Made by a program: the position numbers and the translations under genes. Under the pieces are notes generated by a model. That model had not been told where the DNA came from and made no database searches. It worked only from the letters and a program-made list of their open reading frames with translations. From Clostridia bacterium (GTDB lineage Bacteria > Bacillota > Clostridia > Christensenellales > CAG-138), in assembly GCA_017525875.1 (NCBI GenBank), contig JAFXSG010000013.1, positions 154-64,153 on the forward strand: a stretch of 64,000 bases of DNA, in the 5' to 3' direction. Of this stretch, positions 54,207 through 57,767 are shown one piece after another (the first letter of the stretch is position 1; every line of letters starts with the position of its first letter).

Positions 54207-55589
54207 TCAACTCGTTTCATCGGGCTGAGGAGGCTTGACGCGAACCGATAAAGTATCAAATCCGGGTAGCGAAAACCGAAGAATATTGTCGGATAATTTG
54301 ACTTTCCTTATGATCGAACGGATAAAGTACTGCTGCTCGCAACGTGAAAGCTGCCCGATCACGGAAAAGTGTTCGAAATATTCGCGAATATGCTCCTCTT
54401 GGATGCCGAATTCGCGTTTCTTATAACGCAGATAATCAAGGCATATCTTTTCGAGTTCAAGCTCCGCTCTGTCCCTTTCAAGCTCGGAGAACGCTTTGCC
54501 GTATGGAAGCTCATGCCTCGAATCATACTTTCTGCGGAATGATCCCATTCGGTCGATGTAATCGGACTCGGCGGCAGTTTGCTTGGCAGAATACTTTATA
54601 TACTCATTTCTCGCTCCGGCGATACATTTCTCGATCAACACCGGCAGAACGGTCTTCAGTTTTCGGTCCATAGTGTTTATAAGCGCAGTTTCGATCTGAT
54701 CCGCGCGGAAACAAACGCCATCCTGTTCAGCGGATCGATACACGAGAAGTCTGAGACCGTTTCTTTCCCTGTACGGATATAGTTTTATGCCGTTATCATA
54801 CTCAATGAACTGAAAAAGAGGCGCGTCGGCGTCGATGTCTTTACTCCGTTTTTCGTTCAAAGCAGCGCATTTAAGCCAGACGTTCATCGGTACTATCGGC
54901 GGGTATGCGCTTTTACTTTCTGTCTGAACTCCCGCATAGACTTTGTTTTTGACCAATGAATAAAGCTGGCTGAGCGAAGGACATAGCTCAGCAGGGAATT
55001 TTTTGACTATTGCTTCCCCGATCTCTTTCAAAGTCTTCCCTTGTGAATATGCGAAGAATACGTATTTGATCATCTCCGCTGCTTCTCTTTTAATTATAAT
55101 CGTTCCGTCGACGTTCTCATATCCGAATACGGTCCTGCCTGCTGTCGGCCGTTCGTCCGACTGCTTTTGAGGTCTGAATTCGGCTTCCCATTCGCCTCCG
55201 ACGGAGTAATAATCGTTTATTGCGATTATGTAGCGCTCCGTCGCGGAAATTGCAGGCTGTTTTTTCAGGCTGATAACCGCTGCTCCCTTCAGCTCAAGCA
55301 GGTGCATCATCGCTTCGCGGGTTATTCCGTCGCTGTCAAAGCACTCCGGGCTCTGAACAAGAATCGAAGAGGCCCTGTCAAGCGCTGCCGACCTCATCAG
55401 ATTGAGTAATGAATACGGCGGCCCGTACGGTTTGTCAAATATAGCCTCGCTGATTTCAAGCCCGAGTTTTTGAGCGTGATCTCCAAGCTCCGCTTTGGCG
55501 ATTTCGCCTTCCTCAAGCGAACTGCATCGAATATACGCGATCGTTTTCTTTAACGTTGTTTCAGTTGTTTTATGTGGCTGTGCCGGCAA
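54207..55589 (-). CDS. Large serine recombinase-like protein with degenerate catalytic and zinc-ribbon motifs
   Basis: TTG start after aggaga. The N-terminus is resolvase-like (IAYIRCSSLEE). A recombinase domain (VFGYENVDGTIIIKREAAEMIKYVFFAYSQGKTLKEIGEAI) and a coiled-coil C-terminus follow. The conserved DRLxR arginines and the CxxC pairs are not seen. Confidence 0.7.
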   Translation of the reverse strand: MPAQPHKTTETTLKKTIAYIRCSSLEEGEIAKAELGDHAQKLGLEISEAIFDKPYGPPYSLLNLMRSAALDRASSILVQSPECFDSDGITREAMMHLLELKGAAVISLKKQPAISATERYIIAINDYYSVGGEWEAEFRPQKQSDERPTAGRTVFGYENVDGTIIIKREAAEMIKYVFFAYSQGKTLKEIGEAIVKKFPAELCPSLSQLYSLVKNKVYAGVQTESKSAYPPIVPMNVWLKCAALNEKRSKDIDADAPLFQFIEYDNGIKLYPYRERNGLRLLVYRSAEQDGVCFRADQIETALINTMDRKLKTVLPVLIEKCIAGARNEYIKYSAKQTAAESDYIDRMGSFRRKYDSRHELPYGKAFSELERDRAELELEKICLDYLRYKKREFGIQEEHIREYFEHFSVIGQLSRCEQQYFIRSIIRKVKLSDNILRFSLPGFDTLSVRVKPPQPDETS

Positions 55590-55613
55590 TTGCGGTCTCC
55601 TGTCAAAATGTAT

Positions 55614-56876
55614 TCATCTGCTTATACCGCGGCGGGCTGCCGCTATCTCTTTCGATAATCTGGTTTCATCAACGGAAAGTATCTTCCGGTCCTTCATCAG
55701 GATCCTTCCTCGTGACACGGTATGGATGCAGGCTCTTCCCGACGCAAAGCGTGTCAGCATATCGATGATGCTGTCAGCATCATTACAGCACTGAGCGCCC
55801 GCGTCAAGAACGATCACGTCGGCCGAAGCTCCGGGAGCCAGGCTGCCCATTCGGCAGTTGAACAGCCTGCCCGCAAATGAAGGATTCTCTTTGAGAAGTG
55901 CTTTAACACCGGCTCCGGTGCTGCAATGCCCGCGCACAGAAGAGTAAAACTCCTCATTGCGAACCGCTTCGAGCATATCGGAGGAGGCTGTGCCTGTGCC
56001 TATAAAAACGTTTACAGATTTATTGCAAAGCTCTTCGGTGCTAAGGCACGGAACTCCCACGCTAACGTCCGCAGCAGAAGCCAGCGCGATCGATGCGCCG
56101 TTTGAACGAATGAGCTCAACGTCATCCGGGGTGGTTTCCCCGCAAGCACAGATAATCGTTTTGTCATTAAGAAGTCCGAATTCCGCAAGCCTTTCGACTG
56201 CAGACTCTTTATTTACGGGATCATTTCCTGTTTTTGCATTCAGCCGCACTGTAAAACCCGAATCAGCCGGTGCGGCGGCCCTGATAAGATGAAGCGCAAA
56301 ATCGGATTGCTCCGATACCGGGCCTATGCCAAAGGACGCGGCAACGGACGGGTTCTTATAATAACCGCAGTATCTGATAAAATCCACGTTTTCATCAGAT
56401 GCGGCGCGCATTCTTGCGGAGCCGGGAAGCTCGCTGGTTTCAAAGCTCAAACAGCACCTGACGCCTGTTTCACCATATGCAGCGTACATCGTCTGAAGAG
56501 TTCCGGCCGGATCGTTTGGCACGAAAGCGGAGTCGAATACTGTTGTAACGCCGTTTCTGATACATTGAAGAGCAGCCGCGTATGCCCCATATTTTACTGT
56601 GTCGAGGTTCAGCCGCTTATCAAAAGCAAGCTGCGTGCTTCCGCGGGTCCCGGCGGGTCTCATTAGAGCTCTGCTTTGCATTCGCATATTTACGAGACCG
56701 GGCATAATGATCCCACCGTGTGCGTCAAGCAGTTCAGCGCCGCTGTACTGCATGAGGATGGTTTCGCACGGGCCGGTCGCTATGATCGACTCACCGTCGA
56801 TGGCTATCGCGCCATTAGTAAACGGCGGACAGTTTTCATCCATTGTCAGAACGGTGCCATTATGAATAACCAACAT
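55614..56876 (-). CDS. Amidohydrolase-fold protein (chlorohydrolase/deaminase-like) lacking the canonical metal ligands
   Basis: Fold markers MLVIHNGTVLTMD, AIAIDGESI, IIMPGLVN and GSLAPGASADVIVLD are present. The HxH position reads MRM and the GTD position reads GTG. Confidence 0.75.
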   Translation of the reverse strand: MLVIHNGTVLTMDENCPPFTNGAIAIDGESIIATGPCETILMQYSGAELLDAHGGIIMPGLVNMRMQSRALMRPAGTRGSTQLAFDKRLNLDTVKYGAYAAALQCIRNGVTTVFDSAFVPNDPAGTLQTMYAAYGETGVRCCLSFETSELPGSARMRAASDENVDFIRYCGYYKNPSVAASFGIGPVSEQSDFALHLIRAAAPADSGFTVRLNAKTGNDPVNKESAVERLAEFGLLNDKTIICACGETTPDDVELIRSNGASIALASAADVSVGVPCLSTEELCNKSVNVFIGTGTASSDMLEAVRNEEFYSSVRGHCSTGAGVKALLKENPSFAGRLFNCRMGSLAPGASADVIVLDAGAQCCNDADSIIDMLTRFASGRACIHTVSRGRILMKDRKILSVDETRLSKEIAAARRGISR

Positions 56877-56894
56877 ATTTCGTTTCCGTATTGA

Positions 56895-57767
56895 TCAGGT
56901 ATTGCCGAGCAGCTTATCGCGCATATGCTGTACTGAGGTCTTAATGAATTCTTTATTAGTCGGTTTGCCTCGGGAAGCGTCGATCGAGTTCCCGAAAAGG
57001 GAAAATTGCAAATATGGGCTCCCCTTCTCCCAAGCTCTTTCAATTGCATAGCGAATTGTTTTTTCAACGGCATAGGGGCTTGTTTTATACGTTTCGGCTA
57101 TGCACGAATACAATAGGTCGAGTCTGTCCGGAGCCCCGAGAAACTGCATCGTTATTATGCTCTCAAGGTACTTTGTGCCCCTGAGCGACGGGTCAAACCC
57201 GAGCGGCGTCAGGATAGCTTCAATCAGCACATTTTGGAGCGAGTTTTTGAACGCGCTGTCATAAAAATTGAAATTGTTGTCTATGAAGCTGCGAAGCGAA
57301 CGAAGTGAATTATCGGCTTTGTTACGGGCGTATTCGCTGTATTTAGTGTACACGCACATCGCGGTTTGGGCAATATCGTCGCCAAATGCGGCAGCGGCGT
57401 CAAATCCCTCCGTTTCCGTTATCCGCTCGATCGATCTGTCCATCTTCGGGCAGCATAAGAAAAACCTGATATCGGTGCTGTAACTCATCCTGCGAAGACT
57501 GTTCACAAGAGAGATCGCATTGGCGTCGGGTAAAGTCAGGCTTATCACGATAACGTCGGGTATCGCGGTTATAAGGTGCTTCCAGATATCGCAGCCGCGC
57601 CTGACGGGCTCGGGCGTGCAAAAGAACTTGCTGAGTTCCGCGCACAAAGCTTCAGCGTAATCGGAATGTTCACCCTTATAAGGAGTATCGAGAGGGACAC
57701 TTTCGCATAAAACAAGAGCGTAAGGCATAACGTTCGCAGCCTTATTTGTTCCTGATCTTTCTGCCAT
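56895..57767 (-). CDS. Spo0A C-terminal (DNA-binding) domain protein with a degenerate receiver-like N-terminus
   Basis: The C-terminus LRGTKYLESII...TSPYAVEKTIRYAIERAWEKGS...LFGNSIDASRGKPTNKEFI parallels Spo0A HIKGYLYLREAI...RVERAIRHAIEVAW...KPTNSEFI. The N-terminus PDVIVISLTLPD parallels PDVLVLDIIMPH, with Asp replaced by Ser. Confidence 0.8.
   Translation of the reverse strand: MAERSGTNKAANVMPYALVLCESVPLDTPYKGEHSDYAEALCAELSKFFCTPEPVRRGCDIWKHLITAIPDVIVISLTLPDANAISLVNSLRRMSYSTDIRFFLCCPKMDRSIERITETEGFDAAAAFGDDIAQTAMCVYTKYSEYARNKADNSLRSLRSFIDNNFNFYDSAFKNSLQNVLIEAILTPLGFDPSLRGTKYLESIITMQFLGAPDRLDLLYSCIAETYKTSPYAVEKTIRYAIERAWEKGSPYLQFSLFGNSIDASRGKPTNKEFIKTSVQHMRDKLLGNT

Follow-up and report, generated by a model that had tools for sequence, protein, structure and literature searches.

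Receivers that keep the fold of response regulators without its phospho-acceptor are already known as aspartate-less receivers (ALR) from RitR, ChxR, HP1043 and FrzS (PMC4395418), and SsnA is the ring-opening amidohydrolase of an anaerobic reductive pathway for uric acid and 2,8-dioxopurine, encoded in a uricolytic neighbourhood with ygfK/uacX, xdhD and hyuA (10.1101/2025.05.19.654654). The genome of an uncultured gut Clostridia bacterium (GenBank assembly GCA_017525875.1) was found to carry, in a 64,000-nucleotide stretch of contig JAFXSG010000013.1 that was analysed as a whole and is here called the window, three tightly packed minus-strand open reading frames (positions 54207-57767) whose products are related to Spo0A, to SsnA and to the large serine recombinases, respectively. 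Judged from sequence comparison, these genes, here designated A, B and C, form an operon that has been passed on vertically and kept by selection within a clade of uncultured Clostridia from gut and rumen, with products that are predicted to be non-catalytic. An earlier reading of the same DNA, made from its letters alone (the sequence-only reading), knew of no described system of such composition, and indeed neither the trio itself nor a Spo0A paralogue with an ALR receiver in such an operon was found in the searched literature. The three genes are as follows.

Positions 56895-57767, minus strand: gene A, 290 aa, a pseudo-receiver followed by a Spo0A_C DNA-binding domain.
Positions 55614-56876, minus strand: gene B, 420 aa, an SsnA-derived amidohydrolase-fold pseudoenzyme.
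Positions 54207-55589, minus strand: gene C, 460 aa, TTG start, a dead large-serine-recombinase homologue.

The three proteins and their described relatives

Profile searches assigned A to Spo0A_C (PF08769) with E = 3.2e-22, the match spanning residues 182-281 and covering 103 of the 104 profile positions. On the Spo0A equivalog model TIGR02875 the protein scored 69.9 bits, under the cut-off of 200, and no match to Pfam Response_reg was found in it. Alignments were made with B. subtilis Spo0A and a canonical relative, P0008, as references. In every A that is linked to the trio the column of the acceptor D56 holds Ser and that of T84 holds Cys, Ser or Ile, and the K106-P motif and the acidic pair are gone; hardly any change is seen across the A alignment in the helix-turn-helix, the recognition helix (AVEK.IRYAIE.AW) or the GKPTN.EF motif. 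An AF2 model of moderate confidence (pLDDT 73.6), built from a 7-sequence alignment, displays the (beta-alpha)5 topology of a receiver at its N-terminus, and Foldseek matched the model with the receiver domains of PhoP, PhoB and CheY (TMt 0.73-0.84) and with the Spo0A DNA-binding domain 1fc3/1lq1 (TMt 0.75-0.86). A is an aspartate-less-receiver member of the Spo0A family, and its description in the sequence-only reading, a Spo0A DNA-binding domain behind a pseudo-receiver, holds. It shares with Spo0A the two-domain layout of a receiver fold and then Spo0A_C, and with the ALR response regulators a receiver fold kept without the acceptor; unlike Spo0A, it has no phosphorylatable pocket, lies away from the spoIVB locus and is in an operon with B and C. 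Its upstream neighbour is htrA or sigK. The canonical spoIVB-spo0A locus is present in two of the related loci that were examined (L011 and L020; L numbers denote loci throughout), where it encodes a different protein from A.

That different protein, P0007 (272 aa), is the Spo0A of the canonical recN-spoIVB-spo0A locus (L011:10001-10819, L020:7950-8768), and it too has no Pfam Response_reg match and no Asp in the acceptor column, from which it appears that some uncultured Clostridia have degenerate receivers even in Spo0A orthologues defined by position. Other A-like proteins were seen in Christensenellaceae-type metagenome-assembled genomes (MAGs), with the acceptor column occupied by Glu, which could act as a phosphomimic (L016:7920-8822, L018:6729-7643, L019:2399-3313); their genes lie downstream of a Peptidase_M29 gene and a gene for a 224-aa protein without a Pfam match, and neither B nor C is present. 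A 521-aa protein (L017:7140-8705, L027:6140-7705, L028 and L029) has a C-terminal A-like region, made up of part of a receiver and Spo0A_C, behind an additional N-terminal extension of about 265 aa. Spo0A_C-like domains with 31-38% identity to the C-terminal domain of A are also encoded on 14 contigs from human faeces, unannotated and recorded as 'Bacteriophage sp.' (MT835715.1, MT836727.1 and 12 others), and PHROGs 37855 and 24603, of unassigned function, contain such domains.

B matches Amidohydro_1 end to end (E = 5.6e-11; 42.7 bits against a cut-off of 25) and has PDB relatives in 4dyk and 4f0r at about E = 1e-10. It is closest to SsnA, scoring 214 and 199 bits on two models with cut-offs of 444 and 455. 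After the B protein of a sister species (63% identity) come genuine SsnA proteins, which align with B end to end at about 31% identity. The scaffold motifs of the composite beta-sandwich and barrel of SsnA are kept in B; unlike SsnA, it falls below both cut-offs, has a deletion of about 12 residues after strand 1 and the HxH motif, and lacks every metal ligand. All ligand columns are replaced, HxH by R-M-Q, FDHH by FDSA, HxHxxE by T-V-R-L-N-A, HCIH by CACG and GTD by GTG, so that the amidohydrolase barrel without metal ligands noticed in the sequence-only reading is borne out. The B of the sister species is likewise without metal ligands, and few or none are left in B of L009, L014, L022 and the window. 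Among the orthologues at the other trio loci the active site is eroded to differing extents and with different residues in each lineage, and this variation in the ligand columns implies that the site is no longer under selection. None of ygfK, xdhD and hyuA lies beside B, the neighbours of which are A, C, htrA and miaB. Amidohydrolase-fold proteins that do not catalyse are known from the CRMP/DRP proteins and the inactive PyrC' subunit of Pseudomonas aspartate transcarbamoylase (ATCase), and B is, like these, an amidohydrolase fold without a metal centre.

At one locus (L033:6644-7945) B is split into open reading frames of 317 and 98 aa and lacks the stretch that surrounded the former catalytic Asp; this represents either real decay in that lineage or an assembly error.

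The relationship of C to the large serine recombinases emerged at the level of its family. Searched alone, C matched Pfam Recombinase (PF07508) with E = 0.015 and 16 bits, below the threshold of 21.1, and a direct PDB sequence search gave nothing meaningful. A word-indexed homologue search found two relatives only; the family emerged with an exhaustive HMMER search of 1.84 billion representatives, which gave 53 matches, about 45 of them full-length members of one family (430-485 aa), the lowest-ranking matches including a few true large serine recombinases. A profile made from 26 family members matched the A118 integrase C-terminal domain (4kis, E = 3e-11) across the recombinase domain, the position of the zinc domain, the coiled coil and the tail of C, and it matched the serine-recombinase catalytic domain 6dgc with E = 1.7e-7. 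PF07508 was matched by 23 of the same 26 members (best E = 1.9e-11), and PHROG 95 integrase was matched with E = 2.7e-8. When the AF2 model of C (pLDDT 85.7, pTM 0.83) was searched with Foldseek, the full-length serine integrases 9y66 and 9dxd ranked at the top (E about 1e-10), followed by 4kis, 4bqq and 3bvp. Homology of C to the large serine recombinases is taken to be established at the family level, for which both the family profile and the structure model were needed.

C has the domain order of the large serine recombinases, such as the A118/LI integrase (4KIS), the SPbeta integrase (9y66/9dxd), the phiC31 integrase (4BQQ), SpoIVCA and CcrA/B. It consists of a resolvase-like N-terminal domain, a conserved recombinase domain with the shared motifs GR.PFGY and N.RY.G, a zinc-domain remnant devoid of Cys, a coiled coil (AF2 helices 296-356 and 365-393, pLDDT >90, aligned with the coiled-coil region of 4kis) and a C-terminal beta/alpha segment. 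Unlike these enzymes, the C family has no conserved R8, S10, R68 and R71, no four-Cys site and a short alpha-E helix, and C is chromosomal, syntenic and vertically inherited, without att-like repeats or cargo. Alignment to gamma-delta resolvase with hhalign placed R21 and S23 of C (in Y-I-R-C-S-S) on R8 and S10, a Cys at R68 and a Ser at R71; none of the four columns is conserved among 42 family members, that of S10 being occupied by S, E, A, N, G, K, L, Q or C, with Glu in the closest species (P0002). The only polar residue of the N-terminal domain that is conserved family-wide is the D36 equivalent (79%), and in the zinc-domain region (residues 245-300) no column has Cys in more than 9 of the 42 members. 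The true recombinases in the same alignment, in contrast, keep YARFSS and DRFARN, with all four catalytic residues, and the four-Cys zinc-ribbon pattern CGxCG...C...C. The best-conserved columns of the C family lie in the recombinase domain (G156, Y157, F178, N215, Y218 and G220), to which E418 is to be added. Since the catalytic and zinc columns are unconserved and the recombinase domain is conserved, C is a domesticated large serine recombinase, almost certainly non-catalytic, with a DNA-binding core preserved by selection. The sequence-only reading, which had C lacking both the conserved arginines and the zinc ribbon, was right as to R68, R71 and the four Cys, but the C of the window retains the equivalents of R8 and S10.

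In the NCBI annotation C is named 'hypothetical protein', B 'amidohydrolase family protein' and A 'Spo0A C-terminal domain-containing protein'. Two NCBI MAG annotations give C as 366-367 aa, with a start about 94 codons downstream; the 460-aa form is favoured because homologues align from residue 5 on and an AGGAG ribosome-binding site precedes the TTG codon.

Conservation of the trio and selection

Ten C-family lineages were sampled for gene neighbourhood. B lies directly upstream of C in seven of them, and A lies upstream of B in all six lineages whose contig extends that far. The arrangements are given below (RR, response regulator; PBP, penicillin-binding protein; HTH, helix-turn-helix protein).

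Window, L007 and L022: mutS2-RR-htrA, then A-B-C, then miaB-mutS.
L023: cpsB-sigK (minus), then A-B-C, then miaB-mutS-mutL-miaA, with cotJABC nearby.
L009 and L033: cpsB-sigK (minus), then A-B-C, then PBP or HTH.
L035: B-C, on a short contig.
L024, L025 and L034: DUF885-C, without A or B.

The complete order A-B-C, noticed at first in the window only, was in this way recovered outside the window genome in L007, L022, L023, L009 and L033, and B-C in L035. Identity of C to that of the window is 55% in L007, 30% in L022, 25% in L009 and 24% in L023. Both flanks vary, giving three contexts, and the rearrangement breakpoints always fall outside the trio, within which intergenic distances range across lineages from -1 to 55 nt. 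The host MAGs, from gut and rumen samples, belong to uncultured 'Clostridia bacterium' or Christensenellaceae. A search with the A-family alignment gave 8 GTDB loci and 5 metagenome loci, mostly A-like genes without B or C, and a locus search of GTDB genomes with a 3-member C alignment gave no match.

The upstream order RR-htrA is found in L007 and L022 and is absent from L009, L023, L033 and L014. In each of the latter four, three with the full cassette and L014 with A-B only, a sigma-A-like promoter (TTGAT[TA]-16/17-TA[AG]AAT) lies 30-40 nt 5' of A, and from this promoter where htrA is absent the RR-htrA linkage is seen to be specific to the lineage of the window. The neighbouring sigma factor scores 282-297 bits against a SigK subfamily cut-off of 252. 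Its gene is on the minus strand (L009:9093-9785, L023:4858-5550, L033:4843-5535), is preceded by a gene for a CpsB/CapC-type PHP phosphatase and stands head-to-head with the trio; in L023 cotJA-cotJB-cotJC is also near. These sigK and cotJ neighbours imply that the hosts carry late-sporulation genes.

The DUF885-C pairs of the more distant lineages (L024:1474-4745, L025:6205-9338, L034:256-3492) have ends that sometimes overlap. A lipobox Cys marks the signal peptide of the DUF885 protein, which lacks an HExxH motif; recX comes next after the pair in L024 and L034.

Selection was assessed as dN/dS by the method of Nei and Gojobori, comparing the window with L032 (a strain 95-97% identical) and with L007 (a sister species).

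A: 0.27 against L032, 0.16 against L007.
B: 0.26 against L032, 0.18 against L007.
C: 0.49 against L032, 0.27 against L007.
htrA, RR, mutS2 and miaB: 0.02-0.08 in both comparisons.

When the window is compared with L022, identity is 30-35% for the trio proteins and 85-86% for those of mutS2 and miaB. Full-length, intact open reading frames for A, B and C are present in the window, L007, L022, L023, L009 and L032. These data indicate that the trio is under purifying selection, yet fast-evolving. As it has been kept together and intact in distant relatives, it is regarded as a real module and not as decaying DNA.

Surroundings and base composition in the window

The remaining features of the locus are listed here.

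Positions 59203-59886, minus strand: OmpR-type response regulator gene, upstream and in the same orientation as the trio (NCBIfam/Pfam).
Positions 57795-59165, minus strand: HtrA protease gene, upstream and in the same orientation (NCBIfam/Pfam).
Positions 57768-57794, minus strand: htrA-A spacer, 27 nt from the htrA stop to the ATG of A, with a GGGAGG ribosome-binding site.
Positions 56877-56894, minus strand: A-B spacer, 18 nt.
Positions 55590-55613, minus strand: B-C spacer, 24 nt, with the AGGAG ribosome-binding site 7 nt 5' of the TTG start.
Positions 54162-54190, minus strand: sigma-70-like promoter-like site TTGCCA-17-TATAAT 5' of miaB, 11 of 12 consensus positions matched.

The three same-strand genes between htrA and the miaB promoter, and the gaps of 27, 18 and 24 nt, are as the sequence-only reading had given them. 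A consensus scan found no terminator-like site on the minus strand in the htrA-A, A-B or B-C gaps, again in agreement with it, and the promoter-like site before miaB marks the downstream end of the cassette transcription unit. The trio is followed by miaB, mutS, mutL and miaA, with mutS2, uvrA and uvrB farther out, and family assignments confirmed that these flanking genes are housekeeping genes. Co-transcription with the response regulator and htrA, which the sequence-only reading had proposed, is plausible for the lineage of the window but does not extend to the four lineages in which A has its own promoter; both genes are probably co-transcribed with the trio in the window lineage, yet they lie outside the conserved module.

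A lone tyrosine integrase gene (PF00589, 415 aa) was also seen in the window, at 44207-45454 on the plus strand. It sits amid housekeeping genes, between RNase H/uvrA and Met-gamma-lyase/miaA, with no obvious element around it.

Whole-gene GC is 0.477 for C, 0.487 for A and 0.528 for B, and GC at third codon positions (GC3) is 0.523, 0.567 and 0.534, respectively; the 49 open reading frames of the window have a mean GC of 0.556 (sd 0.030) and a mean GC3 of 0.680 (sd 0.077). The contrast of 38-40% against about 62% G+C that had been counted by hand in 60-nt samples was not reproduced in its magnitude, and is explained by scatter within the genes, since single 60-nt stretches inside the trio genes range from 0.32 to 0.70. 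A dip is nonetheless real, yet modest, about 2.3-2.6 sd for A and C. Horizontal acquisition was considered as its cause and rejected, the cassette being syntenic across lineages in which the trio proteins are 24-35% identical; this deep synteny leads us to attribute the dip to weak codon bias, of the kind found in genes that are weakly expressed and evolve fast, rather than to recent import.

No att-like direct or inverted repeats bound the cassette, where short matches at chance level were the only ones found, no phage or plasmid genes are present with it, and no tRNA gene occurs within the 64-kb window. A tblastn search of phages with C gave a single weak match (24% identity over 20% of the length), and no PADLOC defence model matched A, B or C at E<=0.01.

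Proposed function and alternatives

With moderate confidence, A-B-C is read as a DNA-binding regulatory module of non-catalytic proteins with a link to sporulation or stationary phase. Of the two possibilities raised by the sequence-only reading, a regulatory module built from pseudoenzymes fits better than a domesticated remnant of a mobile element, given vertical inheritance, purifying selection and the lack of mobile-element boundaries. A would act as a phosphorylation-independent transcription factor of the Spo0A type, its recognition helix and KPTN motif being intact. C, instead of recombining DNA, would use its recombinase domain and coiled coil to serve as a partner that binds or bridges DNA site-specifically. 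B, a metal-free SsnA barrel, may be a scaffold or a sensor subunit for a purine or ureido compound; in a complex of the three, B would gate A and C in place of kinase input, and through the DNA bound by A and C the module would govern a regulon within the sporulation or stationary-phase network. Its placement there is suggested by the Spo0A ancestry of A and by the recurrent sigK/cotJ neighbourhood.

Several observations weigh against this proposal. The recognition helix of A departs from that of Spo0A at R214K and H218Y, both of which we take to be base-contacting positions from the literature on 1LQ1, and the Spo0A box (TGTCGAA) is not enriched, with 10 matches against 11.6 expected and none near the cassette. 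The trio is also not always complete: L014 has A-B without C, B is in two open reading frames in L033, A-like genes stand alone in L015-L019 and also in L030 and L031, and the more distant C-family members lack A and B and lie downstream of a DUF885 lipoprotein gene. B of L023 keeps most of its metal ligands (HxH, HH, HxH..E and Asp), so that some lineages may have lost catalysis only lately, the loss not being the ancestral state. The raised dN/dS of the trio, finally, could reflect weak constraint.

Among the alternatives, all of them unlikely, the one that fares best takes the cassette for what is left, now immobile, of a skin-like integrated element that formerly lay within or beside sigK, with C a former SpoIVCA-type recombinase, A and B its cargo, and any present function incidental or limited to sigK. 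In B. subtilis and C. difficile, skin elements that carry a recombinase interrupt sigK (see also PMC5025042). Such an origin would agree with the unambiguous descent of C from large serine recombinases, with the head-to-head position of cassette and sigK in three lineages, with GC and GC3 values that are the lowest among the window genes and with the Spo0A_C-only genes on phage-labelled contigs. Yet there are neither bounding repeats nor a tRNA in the window, phage, plasmid and defence genes are absent, phage tblastn with C and PADLOC having given the results stated above, and sigK is intact and uninterrupted at the sigK-linked loci; moreover, syntenic positions in spite of 24-35% trio identity argue for long vertical descent, and purifying selection acts on all three genes. 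The remnant of a mobile element envisaged in the sequence-only reading is upheld for the ancestry of C and not for the cassette as a whole.

It is about as doubtful that A is simply the divergent Spo0A orthologue or paralogue of the clade and acts alone, B and C being unrelated neighbours carried along by inherited synteny. A-like genes without B or C do occur in the seven loci named above, C-family members can occur without A, and P0007 at the spoIVB locus is also without a recognisable receiver and acceptor Asp. Against independence of the three stand the order A-B-C and its tight spacing, which were held while both flanks changed through three contexts, and the position of B directly 5' of C in 7 of the 10 sampled C-family loci; functionless B and C would, besides, not be expected to survive as intact open reading frames at 24-31% identity.

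Still less probable is residual catalysis with a non-canonical chemistry, B being a metal-independent hydrolase or binder-isomerase and/or C a recombinase with another nucleophile. The R8 and S10 equivalents in the C of the window (YIRCSS), the ligands kept in B of L023 and the well-conserved scaffolds of the B barrel and the C N-terminal domain are compatible with it. The polar residues of that domain are, however, unconserved save for the D36 equivalent, S10 is replaced even in the closest species, and ligand columns of B that differ by lineage point to relaxed selection and not to a new site. That the trio is a set of decaying, functionless pseudogene-like relics is very hard to credit, for although the genes evolve fast (dN/dS 3-10x that of the flanks), have a low GC3 and include a split B in L033 and a C annotated merely as 'hypothetical', the open reading frames are full length in six genomes, dN/dS stays far under 1 even between sequences 95-97% identical, C gave a confident AF2 model, and ribosome-binding sites and promoters are conserved.

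The regulatory module of non-catalytic proteins may be given a more specific form, which we consider improbable as it stands: the trio would be a developmental regulator of a new kind, in which protein partners take over from the kinase/phosphorelay input of a Spo0A-type factor, B, as a dead purine-catabolic amidohydrolase, reading a purine or ureido metabolite, C targeting or synapsing DNA site-specifically with its recombinase domain and coiled coil, and late-sporulation genes, such as the adjacent sigK, being the ones controlled. If this is true, C would be the first large serine recombinase to have been domesticated, without catalysis, as a transcription co-factor.

As an atypical response regulator with pseudoenzyme partners the system belongs to known kinds, and what is clearly new is one protein family, that of C; no description of a dead large-serine-recombinase family was found in the searched literature. 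The existence of such a family in chromosomes would extend the exaptation of mobile-element enzymes to this class, and it would provide a natural 'binding-only' recombinase scaffold. Caution is also called for in annotation, where B is labelled an amidohydrolase though its metal ligands are gone and C is 'hypothetical' and, in some MAGs, about 94 codons short. For the organisms themselves, the association of A with two pseudoenzymes, often beside sigK, suggests that in uncultured gut and rumen Clostridia sporulation may be controlled without the canonical phosphorylation input.

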